7,198 nt of DNA from a virus (lineage: Duplodnaviria > Heunggongvirae > Uroviricota > Caudoviricetes): the IMG/VR virus record IMGVR_UViG_2698536458_000011. One strand, 5' to 3'. Positions 1-7,198 of this stretch are shown here, piece after piece. Below the pieces are notes generated by a model, which was not told where the DNA came from, made no database searches, and saw only the letters and a list, made by a program, of their open reading frames with translations. Numbering within the stretch: the first letter of the stretch is position 1; the number at the start of each line of letters is the position of its first letter. The translations under genes were made by a program, and so were the position numbers.

Positions 1-58
1 TTGAACCAGCGACCTGGCGATTATGAGTCGCTCGCTCTCACCACTGAGCTAAAGGGCC
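1..58 (-). tRNA. Partial tRNA (5' 58 nt; the 3' end lies beyond the window start), identical to the matching part of the tRNA at 2422..2497; anticodon CAU
   Basis: Bases 1-58 are identical to 2440-2497. The reverse complement gives GGCCCTTTAGCTCAGTGGTGAGAGCGAGCGACTCATAATCGCCAGGTCGCTGGTTCAA, with acceptor, D-arm and CAT anticodon loop in canonical positions. Confidence 0.75.
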
Positions 59-67
59 GGGAGCCGC

Positions 68-96
68 ATAATAACGACGCGTAATTAATTCTTCAA
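68..96 (-). promoter_or_regulatory. Candidate sigma70 promoter for tRNA copy 1 (minus strand -35 TTGAAG, 17-bp spacer, -10 TATTAT)
   Basis: Plus-strand cttcaa at 91-96 and ataata at 68-73; the -10 ends 9 nt upstream of the tRNA 5' end. Same layout as the promoter at 2507..2535. Confidence 0.35.
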
Positions 97-98
97 TA

Positions 99-1157
99 TC
101 ATCCGTTCTGGCTGACTAAATCCTGTACTTCCCGAACCGTCTGCTCAAAACGTTCAGTCTCCAGCTCAACGCCAATTGCACGACGCCCGAGCGCCAGTGC
201 CGCTTTCACTGTCGAACCCAACCCCATGAAAAAATCTGCAATCAGGTCACCCGGACGACTGCTAGCGCTGATTATCTGCTGCAGCATTTCTGCCGGTTTT
301 TCGCACGGATGTTTCCCGGGATAGAACTGCACCGGTTTATGCGTCCACACATCGGTATACGGCACCTGCACCGTCACGCCAAAATACCGCCGCAGATGTT
401 TATATTCACTCAGCAGCTCCGCATACTGCCGGTTCAGTGAGGTATACGTATCCACCAGCTGGTGGTGGAGCTTTTCCAGTTCACCACGCCGATGCTTCTC
501 TTCTGCCACCCGGGCAAACAGCGCCTGTAATTTCAGATAATCGCTTTCATTCGGCAACTGCCACTGACCGGCACTGAACCAGTGCGACACCATGTTTTTC
601 TTTCCTGTGGCATCTGCAATCTGTTTTGCCGTTATCCCCAGGGCAGCTCGCGCATCACGAAAGTAAGAAATCAGCGGGGCCATCACATGCTGTTTCAGTG
701 CACTGCCCTTCGCCGCATACCCGGCATCTTTCGGACGATACGGCCCCTGATAATGTTCCGCGAACAGAATGCGCTCTGTGGCGGGGAAATACGCCCGCAG
801 GCTTTCCTTGTTGCATCCGTTCCAGCGTCCGGACGGCTTCGCCCAGATAATATGGTTCAGCACACTGAAGCGTTCACGCATCATGATTTCGATATCAGAT
901 GCCAGGCGATGACCACAGAACAGGTAAAGACTTCCGGCAGGTTTCAGCACCCGCCAGAACTGCGCCAGACACTGGTCCAGCCACTTCAGGTAATCATCGT
1001 CGCCCTTCCACTGGTTATCCCAGCCCTCAGGCTTCACTTTAAAGTACGGCGGGTCCGTGACTATCAGGTCAACAGAATTTTCGGGTAACGACCGGATAAA
1101 TTCCAGGCAGTCGGCGTTGATTAACTCACAACTGGATATTTTTACAGTATTAAGCAT
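99..1157 (-). CDS. DNA methyltransferase, beta-class amino-MTase (probable N6-adenine), 352 aa
   Basis: N-terminal motif IV VTDPPY (aa 33-38) and C-terminal motif I DFFMGLGST (aa ~300-310), the circularly permuted order typical of beta-class N6A/N4C MTases. ATG at 1157; stop abuts the downstream tRNA promoter. No restriction endonuclease gene is visible beside it. Confidence 0.85.
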   Translation of the reverse strand: MLNTVKISSCELINADCLEFIRSLPENSVDLIVTDPPYFKVKPEGWDNQWKGDDDYLKWLDQCLAQFWRVLKPAGSLYLFCGHRLASDIEIMMRERFSVLNHIIWAKPSGRWNGCNKESLRAYFPATERILFAEHYQGPYRPKDAGYAAKGSALKQHVMAPLISYFRDARAALGITAKQIADATGKKNMVSHWFSAGQWQLPNESDYLKLQALFARVAEEKHRRGELEKLHHQLVDTYTSLNRQYAELLSEYKHLRRYFGVTVQVPYTDVWTHKPVQFYPGKHPCEKPAEMLQQIISASSRPGDLIADFFMGLGSTVKAALALGRRAIGVELETERFEQTVREVQDLVSQNG

Positions 1158-1454
1158 GGATCATTAAGCCTGTCTCTGATAGGCTCATTCTGCTTTTGCN
1201 TTTTAACAAACTCCCCGCAAACCAGACAACAGTCAACCGCCTGAATTGTGAAGTATTTAAAAATTTCTCCCGCTAACTGATACCCGGCTAACAGTCTGGC
1301 GTTTTCTTTTTCAGCAACGGGAAAGCAACAACCACCACACCCGCCACCAGCACACCGTCAGCCAGCACTGACATTATCCGGCTGCTGCAATGCCATTCAC
1401 AAAAACAGTAAGCAATCACTTTTTACCGTAACAGGTGATAATCCAGATATGTAT

Positions 1455-1808
1455 CTACCCCAGATGAGTAATCCGAAGTTCATCCATACCACAGGTCCTG
1501 GCTATTCTGTTGTACTCCTGAACAAGAGCAAATAATTCTGAATTAGCAACCATGAACTCATCGCAAACCCTCTGTATAGCATCACTATTCAGAATAATAA
1601 CGTCTCTTCCCGAAAGACGATCAGGAGTACAGAACAAAACTGTCAAACGGCTGAAGGCCTTTGCTCGTGCTGCATTGACTATATCAATACGCTGCCTAAG
1701 GATGAAACACCCCGACGCCTCATCAATATTCACTCTACCCACACCATATGAATGATAAATATTTAATGCTGAAAAAACCATTAGACCGTATAACAAACAC
1801 TCAATCAA
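1455..1808 (-). CDS. Hypothetical protein, up to 117 aa (TTG at 1808; first ATG at 1781 gives 108 aa)
   Basis: Longest ORF in an AT-rich (~40% GC) segment on the same strand as all neighbours. No convincing Shine-Dalgarno for either start; an in-frame stop at 1812-1814 rules out extension into the N-run. No recognisable motif. Confidence 0.35.
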   Translation of the reverse strand: MIECLLYGLMVFSALNIYHSYGVGRVNIDEASGCFILRQRIDIVNAARAKAFSRLTVLFCTPDRLSGRDVIILNSDAIQRVCDEFMVANSELFALVQEYNRIARTCGMDELRITHLG

Positions 1809-1860
1809 TACTTAACAGAACTTTTATTTTTGACAAACATAAAATATTTTCAACAATATC

Positions 1861-2337
1861 NNNNNNNNNNNNNNNNNNNNNNNNNNNNNNNNNNNNNNNN
1901 NNNNNNNNNNNNNNNNNNNNNNNNNNNNNNNNNNNNNNNNNNNNNNNNNNNNNNNNNNNNNNNNNNNNNNNNNNNNNNNNNNNNNNNNNNNNNNNNNNNN
2001 NNNNNNNNNNNNNNNNNNNNNNNNNNNNNNNNNNNNNNNNNNNNNNNNNNNNNNNNNNNNNNNNNNNNNNNNNNNNNNNNNNNNNNNNNNNNNNNNNNNN
2101 NNNNNNNNNNNNNNNNNNNNNNNNNNNNNNNNNNNNNNNNNNNNNNNNNNNNNNNNNNNNNNNNNNNNNNNNNNNNNNNNNNNNNNNNNNNNNNNNNNNN
2201 NNNNNNNNNNNNNNNNNNNNNNNNNNNNNNNNNNNNNNNNNNNNNNNNNNNNNNNNNNNNNNNNNNNNNNNNNNNNNNNNNNNNNNNNNNNNNNNNNNNN
2301 NNNNNNNNNNNNNNNNNNNNNNNNNNNNNNNNNNNNN
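1861..2337. other. Run of 477 N (assembly gap or masked sequence)
   Basis: Uninterrupted n characters; nothing can be annotated here. Confidence 0.98.
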
Positions 2338-2421
2338 ACCGCCATCGGGGACCCGCCCCCGCACCAACAACCCTGTTATCGTGTCGTCTGCTCTTCCTGA
2401 TAAGCTAATGGCGGTTTGTGA

Positions 2422-2497
2422 TGGTGGCCCTTGCTGGATTTGAACCAGCGACCTGGCGATTATGAGTCGCTCGCTCTCACCACTGAGCTAAAGGGCC
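2422..2497 (-). tRNA. tRNA with anticodon CAU, 76 nt with encoded CCA; resembles E. coli tRNA-Ile2 (ileX/ileZ-like), tRNA-Met not excluded
   Basis: Reverse complement: GGCCCTTTAGCTCAGTGGTGAGAGCGAGCGACTCATAATCGCCAGGTCGCTGGTTCAAATCCAGCAAGGGCCACCA. 7-bp acceptor stem GGCCCTT/AAGGGCC, GTTCAAATCC T-arm, CAT at positions 34-36, 3' CCA. Differs at only a few positions from the ileX sequence as I recall it. Confidence 0.9.
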
Positions 2498-2506
2498 GGG
2501 AGCAGA

Positions 2507-2535
2507 ATAATAACGGTCCGTAATTAATTCCGCAA
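2507..2535 (-). promoter_or_regulatory. Candidate sigma70 promoter for the tRNA (minus strand -35 TTGCGG, 17-bp spacer, -10 TATTAT)
   Basis: Plus-strand ccgcaa at 2530-2535 and ataata at 2507-2512; the -10 ends 9 nt upstream of the tRNA 5' end. Confidence 0.4.
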
Positions 2536-2558
2536 TAAAAAACCCGCTCGGCGGCGGG
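2534..2558 (-). terminator. Rho-independent terminator downstream of the Q-like gene (tR'-like)
   Basis: Minus strand reads CCCGCCGCCGAGCGGG (GC-rich hairpin, stem CCCGC/GCGGG) followed by TTTTTTATT. It lies 35-40 bp after the Q stop and immediately upstream of the tRNA promoter. Confidence 0.55.
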
Positions 2559-2599
2559 TTGTAGAAACTCTTCTAACGTCAGGCATAAAACGCCCATAG

Positions 2600-3454
2600 T
2601 TATGACGAATTTACCACAGATTCCGGAAAAATCAACCTAGTTACCTTTTTTAACTGCCGCTCAGCCCATGCTTCTTCAATATCAAACCGGGTCACCAGCG
2701 CATCATAGAATTTCTTAACTGTTTTTTCCCATGACGCGCGTGTTATCTGGTTTGTCACCTCGCATATAGCATTAAATGCCTCCGTTGATGGTAGTCTTTC
2801 ATAGCCACGACCACCACAACGCTGGCAGTCTCTGATAACAGGCATACCACGTTTTACCGACTCTTCACGATGAATGGCGACACCACGCCCACGGCAATCC
2901 TTACAGGCGGTGGAAACCTCACCCTTTCCGCCACACTCCGGACAGGCAACTTTTACCACCTCCCTGACTTTTTTCCATTCTTCCCAGTAAGACGGATACA
3001 CACCTTTCGTACACTTTGCCCATACCGGCGGCTTACCATCCGGATACTGGATCTTGTTTGTAAAAACCTCGCTTTCAATAAATTTTTTTCCGTGACAGCA
3101 GGGGCACTGTTTTTTGCTCGCCGCGCTACGGGCATAATCTTCAAACGCATACGAAGCCATAATACGCATCACTGCCGGTTTTATTTCTGCCGGGAGTTTT
3201 CTTAACGCCGCCACGCGATCACACCGACTGAGTGCATATTCTGTCAGCAATTCTGTTGCCCGCTCTCTGTCATTCATACTAATGCCCATTTTCCCAAGGA
3301 ACGCAGAAACCCCCATCTCAGCCCGATTCTGTGTCATGCCCTGCGCGGCCATCACATCAGTGATACTCAGCGCATCTTTCGACGTTGAGGCCGATGCATC
3401 AGTCAGGCCGGGGGATTTTGGGGAGTAGTATTTCGGTAAATCTTCCAGTTTCAT
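2600..3454 (-). CDS. Q-like late antitermination protein (QuuQ/Q82-type family suspected), 284 aa, with four DnaJ-type CxxCxGxG repeats
   Basis: ATG at 3454 overlaps the rusA stop (ATGA). The position, directly after rusA and before a terminator plus tRNA, is the canonical Q slot. The N-terminus MKLEDLPKYYSPKSP resembles Q-like prophage antiterminators from recall. Repeats at aa 117-124, 171-178, 184-191, 210-217. Confidence 0.65.
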   Translation of the reverse strand: MKLEDLPKYYSPKSPGLTDASASTSKDALSITDVMAAQGMTQNRAEMGVSAFLGKMGISMNDRERATELLTEYALSRCDRVAALRKLPAEIKPAVMRIMASYAFEDYARSAASKKQCPCCHGKKFIESEVFTNKIQYPDGKPPVWAKCTKGVYPSYWEEWKKVREVVKVACPECGGKGEVSTACKDCRGRGVAIHREESVKRGMPVIRDCQRCGGRGYERLPSTEAFNAICEVTNQITRASWEKTVKKFYDALVTRFDIEEAWAERQLKKVTRLIFPESVVNSS

Positions 3455-3825
3455 TTTTTGACCTGCTCTTCATGCATTATGGGGTAAATCTTCACCCCCA
3501 GACGTCCACCAGATACTGGCTGACCACGAACGATATTGATTTCATCAAACTGCTCATCGTCCATTAACACTCCCGCATGTGTCAGTGCATCCAGTGGTGC
3601 TTTCAGGATATTGTCCAGGTCACGACGGCGCTTATCCGGTGGCTCTGCAATAATCTTTATCGCCAGTCTTCCGGACAGGCTTAATTTCAGTCGCTGCTGA
3701 CGGACAATAAGCGCCACATCCCGGCGATAACGCTCACCGGCTTTTGATACAAAATATGTGTTGTCACGACGTCGCCAGTAAGTATTCACCGTCGGCGGAT
3801 AAGGTAAAATAAACTCATGGCGCAT
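3451..3825 (-). CDS. rusA: Crossover junction endodeoxyribonuclease RusA (Holliday junction resolvase), 124 aa
   Basis: RusA family hallmarks: LPYPPTVNTYWRRR near the N-terminus, RRRDLDN, DAL..DDEQ, GGRL. AGGAGG Shine-Dalgarno 10 nt upstream of the ATG at 3825. Confidence 0.85.
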   Translation of the reverse strand: MRHEFILPYPPTVNTYWRRRDNTYFVSKAGERYRRDVALIVRQQRLKLSLSGRLAIKIIAEPPDKRRRDLDNILKAPLDALTHAGVLMDDEQFDEINIVRGQPVSGGRLGVKIYPIMHEEQVKK

Positions 3826-4082
3826 CAGCGCAGCACCTCCTGCACCAGTTTTTCAAACTTTCCGACTCTGGTTTCCAGCTCTGCCACACAGTCCACCAGC
3901 TCATCTACTGCTTTCTGTGCGCGATGCTTCGCCTGCATCAGTTCCCGAAGCGCGGGTACCATATCTTTACGGATAGCGTCTTTTGTTATGCCCGTTTTTT
4001 CGAGTTGTTCAGCATGACGCAGCATTTCCTGCGCGTGTTTACGCAATTGTTCAGGGGTAAAAGTCATTGTCTGGTTGTTCAA
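3825..4082 (-). CDS. Hypothetical small protein, 85 aa from TTG at 4082 (80 aa from ATG at 4067); predicted helical/coiled-coil
   Basis: GGAG sits 8 nt upstream of the TTG; the stop TGA overlaps the rusA ATG (TGATG). Charged, helix-forming composition (EQLRKHAQEMLRHAEQLEK...). It sits between the truncated and intact rusA copies. Confidence 0.5.
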   Translation of the reverse strand: MNNQTMTFTPEQLRKHAQEMLRHAEQLEKTGITKDAIRKDMVPALRELMQAKHRAQKAVDELVDCVAELETRVGKFEKLVQEVLR

Positions 4083-4206
4083 AAGAAACGCTCCATCTTA
4101 CTGCTGTCAGTTCGTTTATTACTGTATCTGCGCGGATTGCCGGGCTTCATGGGAGTGGAAAGCACCCGTGCACTTTCCTGGTCCACAGGCAGAAAATGTC
4201 CGTAGN

Positions 4207-4365
4207 GGACAGGCTTAATTTCAGCCGCTGCTGGCGAACAATAAGCGCCACTGCCCGGCGATAACGCTCCCCGGCTTTTGATACAAAATATGTGCTGCCA
4301 CGACGACGCCAGTAAGTGTTCACCGTCGGCGGGTAAGGTAAAACAAATTCTATGCGCTCGGTCAT
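4207..4365 (-). pseudogene. Truncated rusA remnant (N-terminal ~52 codons only)
   Basis: The ORF starts MTERIEFVLPYPPTVNTYWRRRGSTYFVSKAGERYRRAVALIVRQQRLKLSLS, then loses RusA similarity exactly at the ambiguous base n4206. DNA 4207-4353 is ~90% identical to 3673-3819. Its ATG directly follows the DUF968 gene stop (TAA-ATG). Confidence 0.75.
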
Positions 4366-5424
4366 TTATGCTTTCCACTTCAGAACACCCGAATTTCTCG
4401 CGTGCATTAAAAAACGAATCAGCAACAACAGCTGACTGCCGTGTTTCTCTTCAAAATCTTTTACTCCGGCATGTAGTTCGTTACGGCATTTACGGCATAA
4501 CGGAATAACAAACAAATCATCAGCCTTTGTTCCCATCCCTCCCAGTCCATGACCAATGATGTGATGCGGATCATCTGCCTGATTGCCACACGTCATGCAT
4601 TTCTGCGTTTTTACCCAGCGCGTGTATACAGGCATCTCTTCCCGTTGTGATTTCTGGCGCTGGAGATACTGAGCCGGTGACTCCGGATCAACGGCAATGC
4701 TGACCACCGTCTTTTCCTGTGGTGGGTTCTGTTGCTGGTGGACGTGAGGCAGTAACGCAATATTTTTTGTGCGCTGCTTCAGTATGCTGGTGGCTGTCTG
4801 CTCTCCCGGTATGATGTCGCTTTCACTGTACACAGAGCGAATTTTTTCCGCACGCAACCCCAGCGAACGACGTAATACCGCTTCCGGTAGCGCGTCCGCC
4901 ACCTGATTGCGGACCGCCCACCAGGATAATTCAGCCAGAGATAATTCACGCTCCTGCGTACCGCTTATTGCGTGACCGATGACGTCAATCATCCATGCTG
5001 ACAGGTTTTGATGAGCAAGTTGCTCGAGTGATTCGGATGTCTGGTCACGCAGCTGGTTGTCGCAGTGCCAGCACAACACCATTGCGCCGGTACCATAACG
5101 GTGAATGACGGTTTCGCTGTGATGATAATCGCCGTGTGGCCACTGGCAGGATTTAATATGGCGCAACAGCCAGTCAGACAATGCACCAGCACCACCAGCA
5201 GCACGAATCACCCGTGCGTTACTGAAAAACGGCAGCAATGTTTTGTCTTCCACCAGCGGCTGGCGAGCGGCAGGAACGACCCCGGACGGCAGATTACGCA
5301 TGCTTTTTGGTTCCGGCTCCACCAGTATTCTGCCGTTATGGAATGCTGACATTGATTCACGGCCTGGCTTAACGATAACCAGACCGAGTTCCGGTACCAG
5401 AACAGGTCGAAGTAATACCCGCAC
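4366..5424 (-). CDS. DUF968/YdfU-like prophage protein, 352 aa, with a C-terminal Cys/His-rich (HNH-like or zinc-ribbon) motif
   Basis: Long ORF with ATG at 5424 preceded by GGAGG (spacing only 2 nt, so the true start may differ). C-terminus CMTCGNQADDPHHIIGHGLGG...CRKCRNELH. Size and position upstream of rusA match YdfU-type proteins of E. coli prophages as I recall them. Confidence 0.75.
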   Translation of the reverse strand: MRVLLRPVLVPELGLVIVKPGRESMSAFHNGRILVEPEPKSMRNLPSGVVPAARQPLVEDKTLLPFFSNARVIRAAGGAGALSDWLLRHIKSCQWPHGDYHHSETVIHRYGTGAMVLCWHCDNQLRDQTSESLEQLAHQNLSAWMIDVIGHAISGTQERELSLAELSWWAVRNQVADALPEAVLRRSLGLRAEKIRSVYSESDIIPGEQTATSILKQRTKNIALLPHVHQQQNPPQEKTVVSIAVDPESPAQYLQRQKSQREEMPVYTRWVKTQKCMTCGNQADDPHHIIGHGLGGMGTKADDLFVIPLCRKCRNELHAGVKDFEEKHGSQLLLLIRFLMHARNSGVLKWKA

Positions 5425-5499
5425 ATTACCTCCAGATCCGTTGCTGGAATGTGCGGGACGGACGCGTTGGCCGTTCGGAGTAAGGGAGCCTGACGGAGA

Positions 5500-5781
5500 T
5501 TATCCAGTGACGGTAGTCGAGGCTAAGGGCTTTTTTAACCTCGCATCCGCGCCTGCGGTAACACTGAATGAGCCATTCGGCCTGTTCTTCAGTGCATGGG
5601 GGATGCTGGTACCAATCAGATTTAAATGCGTGAGAGCGCCGCCCGTGCCTGCTGGCAAAGACGGCTGAATTATCAGAATTGTGTAGTCTGGAAGGCAGTG
5701 GCTGACAATAGCGCCATTCTCAACGCGCACAGTATAGAGGCCATCTTCACTAAAAATTTCACGTAATTCTTCGATTTTCAT
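5500..5781 (-). CDS. Hypothetical prophage protein, 93 aa
   Basis: ATG at 5781 with a strong Shine-Dalgarno (GGAAGGA, 8-nt spacer); same strand as neighbours. The C-terminal half is Gly/Thr/Ala-rich with no recognisable motif. Confidence 0.5.
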   Translation of the reverse strand: MKIEELREIFSEDGLYTVRVENGAIVSHCLPDYTILIIQPSLPAGTGGALTHLNLIGTSIPHALKNRPNGSFSVTAGADARLKKPLASTTVTG

Positions 5782-5863
5782 CAACAGAATCCTTCCAGAT
5801 AAATAGCACTCCCCTGTTCGGGGTCCATCCCTCTTCTCCCTGCGCGCTACTTAAGTATTTTTG

Positions 5864-5893
5864 ATTCTATTCCGGCACCATCTAAAACTTCAA
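5864..5893 (-). promoter_or_regulatory. Candidate sigma70 promoter (minus strand -35 TTGAAG, 18-bp spacer, -10 TAGAAT) upstream of the 93-aa ORF and YdfU-like gene
   Basis: Plus-strand cttcaa at 5888-5893 and attcta at 5864-5869, immediately downstream of the hok terminator and ~80 nt upstream of the ATG at 5781. Confidence 0.3.
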
Positions 5894-5900
5894 ACGCGTT

Positions 5901-5932
5901 GAAAATAAAAACAAAAACCCGCCGAAGCGGGT
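5901..5932 (-). terminator. Rho-independent terminator of the hok mRNA
   Basis: Minus strand reads ACCCGC-TTCG-GCGGGT (5-6 bp GC stem with a UUCG tetraloop) followed by TTTTTGTTTTTATTTT. Confidence 0.8.
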
Positions 5933-6001
5933 TAAGTGTGGGTGCATTGAGGATGCCTGACCCATCAGAGGTGGCGAGGGATTTCTCCCCCGCCTGGTCT
6001 C

Positions 6002-6157
6002 TTACTCCTCAGGTTCGTAAGCTGTGAAGACAGCGACCTCCGTCTGGCCGGTTCGAATTCGTACCTCGCAGAGGTCTTTCCTCGTTACCAGTGCCGTCAC
6101 TATGACGGTTAAACAGATGACGATCAGGGCGATTAACATCGCCTTTTGCTGCTTCAT
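6002..6157 (-). CDS. hok: Hok-family type I toxin (HokD/RelF-like), 51 aa
   Basis: Translation MKQQKAMLIALIVICLTVIVTALVTRKDLCEVRIRTGQTEVAVFTAYEPEE is a canonical Hok sequence (single transmembrane helix, conserved C-terminal Cys). AAGGAG Shine-Dalgarno 9 nt upstream of the ATG at 6157. Confidence 0.9.
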   Translation of the reverse strand: MKQQKAMLIALIVICLTVIVTALVTRKDLCEVRIRTGQTEVAVFTAYEPEE

Positions 6158-6214
6158 AGCCTGCTTCTCCTTGCCTTTCGGCACGTAAGAGGCTAACCTA
6201 GATTTGCCGTTCAT
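6002..6214 (-). CDS. mok: mok-like reading frame (in-frame N-terminally extended, 70 aa) that mediates hok translation
   Basis: ATG at 6214 opens a 70-codon frame that contains hok in frame, the same geometry as known Mok/Hok pairs (e.g. MokC/HokC). GAGG lies ~10 nt upstream. Confidence 0.55.
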   Translation of the reverse strand: MNGKSRLASYVPKGKEKQAMKQQKAMLIALIVICLTVIVTALVTRKDLCEVRIRTGQTEVAVFTAYEPEE

Positions 6215-6333
6215 AGATTGAGCCTCAGATTAATGTTAAGCGTCTTGCCGGACGCGTAATGTTAACTGGGGCTTTTCTCTATCTGCCTTTTGGTGTTCAT
6301 GCCTGAGACAGATAGCCTCAAGCACCCGCTGCA

Positions 6334-6361
6334 ATTCTACTTAACTCTCCTTTTCCCGCAA
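6334..6361 (-). promoter_or_regulatory. Candidate hok/mok promoter (minus strand -35 TTGCGG, 16-bp spacer, -10 TAGAAT)
   Basis: Plus-strand ccgcaa at 6356-6361 and attcta at 6334-6339. The predicted start (~6325-6327) would begin the transcript with GGGUGCUUGAGG, which is complementary to CCUCAAUGCACCC near the 3' end (plus strand 5940-5952), as in hok fold-back inhibition. Confidence 0.45.
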
Positions 6362-6368
6362 ACCGTTT

Positions 6369-6452
6369 TTATCCCCAGCGGCAAATCGAATACACCACCA
6401 GCGCCACCGCCATCGCAATTCCTACCGTTGTTAATGCTTCAGGCCAGGTCAT
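6369..6452 (-). CDS. Putative 27-aa hydrophobic peptide ([27 protein letters not shown])
   Basis: Not in the supplied ORF track (too short). ATG at 6452 with a GGAGGA Shine-Dalgarno 9 nt upstream, overlapping the stop of the 114-aa ORF (ATGA). One predicted transmembrane helix. Ends just upstream of the hok promoter. Confidence 0.4.
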
Positions 6453-6793
6453 CGTAAAATATCCTCCACGCTTATCAGTCCGTTCCGCTCCAGATAACTC
6501 ATCGCCTTATCCGGTAATTTGCAGTCTGGCTTCGCTTTCCTCAGTTGCCAGGTTAACTGCTTTACCAGCATGGTTAACTCATCGACCAGACGCTGATATC
6601 CCACTGGTTTGTATTCATGCAATTTACCGGCTGGCTCTGCTGCCAGCGATACCAGTGCGATTTCCAGAACAGCAATATCCATCTTATATGTGCGGATGAT
6701 GTCATGGTCGATTGTGCCCGGTATGCACAGTCTCTGTGCTTCAATAGTCTCCTCTGCGTGAGCTATTAACTGCTCTCTGGTAAAAGTCGTCAT
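6449..6793 (-). CDS. Hypothetical protein, 114 aa; paralog of the upstream 55-aa ORF
   Basis: ATG at 6793 overlaps the stop of the 55-aa ORF (ATGA). Shares an MTTxT N-terminus and the motif [10 protein letters not shown] with the 55-aa ORF ([10 protein letters not shown]). Plus strand 6633-6661 matches 6836-6864 at 25/29 nt. Confidence 0.65.
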
Positions 6794-6957
6794 GCCGTAG
6801 CCCCTTCTTGATATTTTTCAAACCAGAACACAACCGGCTCTGCTTCCAGCGATGCCAGCGCAATCCGTGCCAGTTCCATTTGTTCACCACGGGTAAGCCC
6901 GTTTTCAAGCGGGTTTTTAATGAACAATTCAATACGTTCTTTGGTAATAGTGGTCAT
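6790..6957 (-). CDS. Hypothetical small protein, 55 aa ([55 protein letters not shown])
   Basis: Not in the supplied ORF track. ATG at 6957 lies 10 nt after the stop of the upstream partial ORF; its stop overlaps the next start (ATGA). Paralogous to the N-terminal half of the 114-aa ORF. Confidence 0.5.
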
Positions 6958-6967
6958 GTGTTACTCC

Positions 6968-7198
6968 TTAACCCGCAGTGCTTTCAACTGATGAGGGGAA
7001 CAAAATCTTTTCATCAAACCCTGCATTCATATCATGAACAGCAACACACCAATCCATCGACGAACGATTATCAAGAGCCTCCATGATTTCATCCATGCGG
7101 CGTAGGTCATACAGGTAAATGCTTTTATCGCCAATGGTGTAAAAGCCAATTTTTTTCGGTGATGGATGAGGTGTACTGGCAATAGCGGACACTACCAT
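6968..7198 (-). CDS. Hypothetical protein, C-terminal 76 codons (probably 5'-truncated by the window edge)
   Basis: Open frame on the gene strand running to the window edge, stop TAA at 6968-6970. The ATG at the edge may be coincidental. No recognisable motif. Confidence 0.5.
   Translation of the reverse strand: MVVSAIASTPHPSPKKIGFYTIGDKSIYLYDLRRMDEIMEALDNRSSMDWCVAVHDMNAGFDEKILFPSSVESTAG

Follow-up and report, generated by a model that had tools for sequence, protein, structure and literature searches.

Gene content of the window

The window, i.e. the whole stretch of DNA analysed here (7,198 nt), is a short-read draft scaffold of Shigella sonnei that carries every one of its genes on the minus strand (Table 1). 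Pfam assigned the ORF at 2600-3454 to antiterminator Q, and Rfam returned a sok RNA together with two tRNA matches. For the 85-aa ORF, the Pfam search gave sub-threshold matches only, and its exact protein is named hypothetical or bacteriophage protein in Shigella. In general, exact matches to the window's proteins are named Shigella sonnei or Shigella in the source databases, the DUF968 protein carrying the label [Shigella sonnei] and the 124-aa protein being listed as RusA [Shigella sonnei]. The window starts inside a tRNA, with positions 1-98 repeated at 2440-2537 (93% identical), and its 3' end (7167-7198) consists of 32 nt of a sequence found again next to IS600-type transposase genes. 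Being bounded by repeats (an IS600-type end and a tRNA) suggests a whole scaffold, and the window is probably the entire 7.2-kb scaffold.

Two module types were found among complete E. coli genomes. Type A (FDAARGOS_944, L001) is made up of a replicative helicase, an 85-aa ORF, rusA, Q and a tRNA, and type B (L003) of hokD, DUF968, rusA, Q, a small ORF and a methylase. In BLAST comparisons with these loci, positions 1-1199 and 4207-7198 corresponded to type B, and most of 1201-4205 to type A. Judging from this block assignment, the window is almost certainly an interleaving of two paralogous S. sonnei lambdoid prophage remnants, and an earlier note on this DNA correctly recognised that it brings together two different lambdoid modules. 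The B locus has the elements of the Qin-type remnant (hokD/sok-rem-ydfU(DUF968)-Q) in the same order, but differs from it by an intact rusA between DUF968 and Q; Qin of K-12 is not known to carry rusA at that place.

Table 1. Features of the 7,198-nt window, with their assignment to the A and B loci
Feature	Position	Strand	Basis
B block: partial tRNA (1-58) and N6/N4 DNA methyltransferase (99-1157)	1-1199	-	PF01555, Rfam; 100% identical to L011-L018
Single n, B locus on the left and A locus on the right	1200		Flank matches in complete chromosomes
A block downstream of Q(A), with 117-aa ORF (1455-1808)	1201-1860	-	100% identical to 5 complete A loci
Scaffold gap, 477 N	1861-2337		Flanks 151 nt apart in finished chromosomes
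A block: tRNA with CAT anticodon (2422-2497) and Q 3' end	2338-2708	-	99.5% identical to A locus; ARAGORN, Rfam
B sequence inside the 'A' block: 5' two-thirds of Q	2709-3466	-	100% identical to B locus, 95.4% to A locus
rusA of A locus, intact, 124 aa; holds repeat copy 3673-3823	3451-3825	-	PF05866; 3467-3825 100% identical to complete A locus
85-aa coiled-coil-like ORF of A locus	3825-4082	-	Lies between helicase and rusA in L001, L002; annotated there as hypothetical
Replicative DnaB-type helicase gene, 3' end, truncated by IS2	4079-4202	-	Annotation of E. coli FDAARGOS_944 (L001)
TAG, first bases of IS2 end	4203-4205		Sister contigs and L019
Single n, A locus on the left and B locus on the right	4206		Flank matches in complete chromosomes
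rusA of B locus, first 53 codons; holds repeat copy 4207-4357	4207-4365	-	8 complete chromosomes
DUF968/HNH-like gene (ydfU-like), B locus	4366-5424	-	PF06147, 210 bits
Rest of B locus: rem-region ORF, hokD, sok RNA, small ORFs, IS600 end	5425-7198	-	Pfam, Rfam
hokD	6002-6214	-	Pfam Hok
sok RNA	6152-6327	-	Rfam

The two rusA copies

A repeat search followed by pairwise alignment recovered a direct repeat of 151 nt (3673-3823 vs. 4207-4357, 89% identical) that comprises the first ~53 codons of two rusA genes. This confirms the earlier note's observation that the 5' segment of rusA occurs twice, as well as its placement of the homology break at n4206: in the alignment, position 3672 is a C and 4206 the n, and 3671 is a C where 4205 is a G. 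The ORF at 3451-3825 contains the full RusA domain (PF05866 matched from position 1 to 123 of the 124-position profile; 61.3 bits, cut-off 22.8), and the ORF at 4147-4365 covers profile positions 1-42 alone, with 19.9 bits, which is below that cut-off. The catalytic acidic residues of E. coli RusA lie at approximately positions 70-91, and a fragment of 53 codons would presumably be devoid of them. Both copies are homologous to the RusA resolvases of lambdoid prophages (rusA/ybcP of DLP12 in E. coli K-12, PF05866) and, like these, lie just upstream of a Q antiterminator gene. Compared with this family nothing about them is unusual, the upstream copy being short through assembly only.

The sequence on the B side, to the right of n4206, is GGACAGGCTTAATTTC. 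The sister contigs L005 and L007 carry a complete type-B rusA, which reads past 4207 into the remainder of the gene (minus-strand 3' sequence of rusA(B) in L007: …GGAAGGTTGGCAATAAAAATT…), and the DNA of 4207-4365 is part of an intact gene for a 126-aa RusA in eight complete chromosomes. The earlier note's description of the upstream copy as truncated holds for the sequence as given, but the gene is intact in the complete chromosomes. The apparent truncation of the B rusA is, on the sequences compared, a contig end that is confined to this assembly.

Arrangement in complete chromosomes

The exact DUF968 protein of the window was found in 88 blocks with contigs >1 Mb. Eight distinct complete chromosomes were returned (L011-L018, 4.8-4.9 Mb), all of them with the order hokD-DUF968-RusA (126 aa)-Q (273 aa)-methylase. 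An IS600-type element comes before this series, and a rem-region ORF and a 65-aa ORF, the latter between Q and the methylase, are there wherever they were called. Positions 1-1199 and 4207-7198 of the window are 99.97-100% identical to these eight chromosomes, in which the two B flanks have the same orientation, are separated by 1570 nt, and enclose intact RusA and Q genes and no helicase/85-aa block. The matches included HE616528.1, which we take to be S. sonnei 53G. The exact type-A RusA was found in 95 blocks with contigs >1 Mb, and in two of the eight chromosomes (CP104423.1 and CBDDMI010000001.1) the A block is located ~650 kb from the B locus. The complete A locus has the order IS2, helicase tail, 85-aa ORF, RusA (124 aa), Q (284 aa), tRNA, and positions 1201-1860 (aligned to the complete A loci L019, L020, L022, L023, and L025) and 3467-4205 of the window are 100% identical to it. 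The real biology behind the duplicated segment is, as predicted from these loci, a pair of intact genes for RusA Holliday-junction resolvases, one in each of two separate prophage remnants.

Joins at the ambiguous positions

The sole single n's of the window, n1200 and n4206, both fall exactly on switches between B and A. In complete chromosomes, the 30 nt to the left of n1200 occur only in B loci and the sequence to its right only in A loci; conversely, the left flank of n4206 occurs only in A loci and its right flank only in B loci. At all four contig ends adjoining the n's, sister contigs continue with the parental sequence and not with the far side given in the window; past position 1199, for instance, sister contigs and complete genomes continue GCAAAGCAGTGGG... 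Both positions have what characterises a false scaffold join, namely an N at a switch of locus with sides that continue differently in finished genomes. On the B side of n1200, the contig breaks off where the two arms of an imperfect inverted repeat meet, with CTGCTTTTGC before this centre and GCAAAGCAG after it. The run of 477 N is also a mis-sized gap, its place being taken by 151 nt in complete chromosomes as well as in L004, L005, and L009.

As one piece, the junction of the window was present in none of 5,426 complete E. coli genomes; with 0-12 unknown bases allowed it had no match in IMG/VR or among metagenome contigs, and a search by its left flank did not find it in the contigs of GTDB genomes. 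A protein search with the 72-aa chimeric ORF returned no homologue over its tail, with a maximum query coverage of 75%. What would mark a genuine junction is missing here: an n stands at the join, the arrangement does not recur elsewhere, and both parental loci are intact in complete chromosomes.

The helicase tail and IS2

The match between the window and L001 (2365-4203, 97.5%) ends within the annotated helicase CDS of the latter, and the frame ...GHFLPVDQESARVLSTPM...MERFF* is the C-terminus of the protein P0110, which bears the DnaB_C domain PF03796. The segment that the earlier note took for an unrelated 124-bp spacer is in fact the 3' end of this helicase gene, followed by the TAG of IS2. 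Searching IMG/VR with the left flank returned six sister contigs (L004-L009), all of which continue TAGACTGGCCCCCTGAATCTCC..., and the same sequence continues the breakpoint in L019, the one complete A locus that was read there. Its RefSeq annotation reads IS3-like element IS2 family transposase. Because the sister contigs continue in this way, the TAG marks the start of IS2, the right end of which we take to be …GGGGCAAATCCA; the T at 4203 may be common to helicase and IS2.

IS2 (IS3 family) abuts the helicase breakpoint in L004-L009 and L019, where it interrupts the gene 124 nt before its stop codon; compared with this known insertion, the window retains just 3 nt of the element. The helicase-IS2 junction is absent from complete E. 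coli genomes and was seen only in Shigella-type sequences. Going by this recurrence in sequenced relatives, the insertion of IS2 that truncates the A-locus helicase is real biology. In the complete A loci (L019-L026), the helicase-truncating IS2, located upstream of the 85-aa ORF, is itself broken at ~nt 160 by another sequence, and genes of the IS21 family (IstA/IstB) adjoin the interrupted IS2 in complete A loci, nested insertions being typical of S. sonnei.

A hybrid Q in the middle block

The Q gene of the window (284 aa) is a hybrid of A and B, in which 758 nt of B are flanked by A sequence. When 2338-4205 was compared with the complete A locus, all 37 differences carried the B allele, and over 3052-3410 B alleles were found at 35 consecutive informative sites. 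A and B are identical at 2709-3051 and 3411-3466, and the allele switches fall into these two stretches. The exact hybrid protein was retrieved from 385 blocks, all on contigs <200 kb, in contrast to the DUF968 protein and the type-A RusA, whose 88 and 95 blocks have contigs >1 Mb. Since it was found solely on such short contigs, the hybrid Q is a recurrent short-read chimera, and it has entered protein databases.

Single-N joins in related drafts

For a survey of single-N joins, the window and 15 related draft contigs were placed on complete chromosomes. N's were present in none of the 16 loci from complete chromosomes and in 13 of the 15 related draft loci. A single join out of 23 was collinear with complete chromosomes, while 10 linked non-adjacent points of one locus (thereby giving artificial tandem repeats), nine linked A to B, and three had no placement. 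In the collinear case (L006), the N lies between the two copies of a duplicated 4-nt overlap (acct N acct) at a place where the window is continuous, and is therefore a placeholder set by the scaffolder. The protein P0110 itself, deposited in GenBank as 'helicase [Shigella sonnei]', fuses 42 rusA codons to the helicase C-terminus across a single N (L010, GCA_001249045.1, CXCT01000198.1, 1783-2151, with the N at L010 position 1905), and is an artefact of the same kind as the join in the window, with another breakpoint.

A pipeline of Velvet, SSPACE, and GapFiller was run on 299 S. sonnei samples, giving a mean of 405 contigs (Page et al. 2016, PMC5320598); the same authors state that false joins can result from its greedy scaffolding and gap filling and that short contigs are discarded. 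This pipeline serves here as a comparison, as that behind the window may differ. Edge trimming and extension are described in the GapFiller paper, which does not explicitly document single-N leftovers. With the false joins and chimeric contigs known from repeated prophage or IS sequences in short-read scaffolds, for example those of this pipeline, the window shares N placeholders at the joins, a mis-sized gap (477 N for 151 nt), the switching of alleles within a stretch identical between paralogues, missing short stretches of unique sequence, and ends that fall at IS600 and a tRNA repeat. It departs from known false joins in the start of the B contig exactly at 4207, which these do not explain.

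Explanations for the duplicated segment

Taken together, the sequence evidence indicates that the duplicated, truncated rusA is very probably an artefact of assembly and scaffolding. The identity of each block, where the n's lie, how complete genomes are arranged, and the chimeric nature of Q come directly from the tool results; the read-pair mechanism by which the scaffold would have been built, and the software involved, we infer. The stretches 2709-3051 and 3411-3466 are the same in A and B, and for this reason the assembler would have run the 5' part of B's Q into a contig that is A-type elsewhere. With 758 nt of true B sequence in this contig, read pairs probably tied it to both B flanks, and the scaffolder would then have set the A-type contig between them, leaving a single n at each join that it could not close (1200, 4206) and 477 N for one gap. 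The pieces lost in the process would be 206 nt from the B-specific 3' part of rusA and 606 nt from the Q 3' end and 65-aa region of B. Because of the loss of these B-specific sequences, the B rusA would seem to be cut at codon 53, followed by the helicase tail, the 85-aa ORF, and the rusA of A.

Some details fit this explanation less well. A de Bruijn contig is expected to run ~k-1 bases into IS2, yet only three are present; no third rusA copy and no change in A/B similarity was found that would account for the start of the B contig at 4207; and the blocks also follow one another as B-A-B in L005 and L007, so that one might count these contigs as separate evidence for the adjacency. Each of these two contigs, however, has its own single N at a different breakpoint, with rusA(B) intact in both. 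Trimming and extension of contig edges by a gap filler is a possibility for both the start at 4207 and the 3-nt stub of IS2. A collapsed near-identical repeat was considered for the break at 4207 and rejected: A/B identity declines gradually (100% at 3223-3422, 88-92% at 3523-3772) and shows no step at 3672/3673, the A rusA of the window has no B alleles, and no third copy equal to the 3' part of the B rusA exists among the loci compared. The assembly problem that the earlier note named as its alternative is upheld as an artefact at an n-marked repeat, though it takes the form of a false join plus contig chimerism and not of a simple collapsed repeat.

If, instead, the isolate had undergone a real IS2-associated rearrangement, a copy of the multi-copy IS2 would separate the helicase tail from the mid-part of rusA(B), and the assembler would have collapsed it to the n. 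Such a state could arise, for example, when IS2 deletes DNA adjacent to itself or when two of its copies recombine; the truncation of rusA would then be real, with an insertion sequence and not phage-phage recombination as its cause. The TAG of the IS2 end kept beside n4206, the IS600, IS1, IS2, and IS21-family genes around both loci, and the matching order of A and B blocks in L005 and L007 speak for such an event. We nevertheless regard it as very unlikely: the complete chromosomes that match the B flanks at 99.97-100% have an intact B locus; n1200 shows no IS signature, and a second, independent event would be required at this other end; and the breakpoints are not fixed, L005 and L007 having their N's elsewhere and an intact B rusA. 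Furthermore, the inserted block holds 758 nt of B's own Q, which fits mis-assembly and not transposition, and single-N joins among related drafts are nearly always non-collinear. That the entire A module (helicase tail, 85-aa ORF, rusA, Q, tRNA) was moved by an IS2-linked process into the B remnant of one isolate is highly improbable; if true, the B rusA would be cut short by the move and late-regulatory modules would stand in tandem.

The earlier note itself favoured a real mosaic junction, at which illegitimate or short-homology recombination joined two lambdoid modules and a 5' piece of rusA was left behind. Two such modules do abut in the window, and both module types, as well as a natural helicase-85aa-DUF968-rusA variant, exist in E. 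coli. This origin is extremely unlikely all the same: homology at the join amounts to 0-1 nt at most, with three IS2-derived bases and the n placed there; the arrangement is absent from the 5,426 complete E. coli genomes and the contig collections scanned; no homologous protein covers the chimeric tail (query coverage of 75% at the most); and the loci are kept apart in complete S. sonnei genomes. The recombination event proposed in that note is contradicted by the n at the join, by the absence of the junction elsewhere, and by the ~650 kb between its two sides in complete chromosomes. Single ambiguous bases can also arise in consensus sequences, in which case the n would be a plain low-quality base call in an otherwise correct contig and the duplication real. 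We consider this exceedingly improbable, given that both n's sit on A/B switch points (by a rough estimate, the chance of this is ~1e-7 if they were random) and that in no complete genome does either side of an n continue as it does in the window.

With false scaffolding as the preferred reading, the finding is a caution and not new biology. Where paralogous rusA-Q modules occur in the IS-rich genomes of Shigella, chimeric contigs and false single-N joins are routine in short-read scaffolds, and such artefacts enter public databases as fake gene fragments or fusion proteins, of which P0110 and the hybrid Q are examples. In scans for mosaic junctions or gene fragments, a breakpoint that coincides with an N should be treated as unverified.

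Other features of the window

Compared with E. coli FDAARGOS_944, the region 1334-2364 (~705 nt in finished genomes) is an insertion, its flanks overlapping by 8 nt in that genome. Gene calls include the 117-aa ORF within it in some genomes only, and it had no match in Pfam. A toxin-like gene in this ORF and the N-run was considered and dropped, as Pfam gave nothing and just 151 nt replace the N-run in complete genomes. The tRNA at 2422-2497 was predicted by ARAGORN as Met (CAT anticodon), and its RefSeq homologue in FDAARGOS_944 is annotated as tRNA-Ile; presumably, it is of the lysidine-modified ileX type that lambdoid phages carry downstream of Q.

In the rem-region ORF (5500-5784), 250 nt are missing at 5693/5694 of the window in comparison with L005, L007, and the complete chromosome CP064376.1 (L017), and the same 250 nt are absent from seven other complete chromosomes. 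From this distribution, the difference appears to be a real indel polymorphism. Finally, hokD and sok form a type I toxin-antitoxin pair at 6002-6327 on the minus strand, with the sok RNA scoring 112 bits; the Hok ORF is 70 aa long when read from an upstream ATG, and most gene calls give 51 aa.
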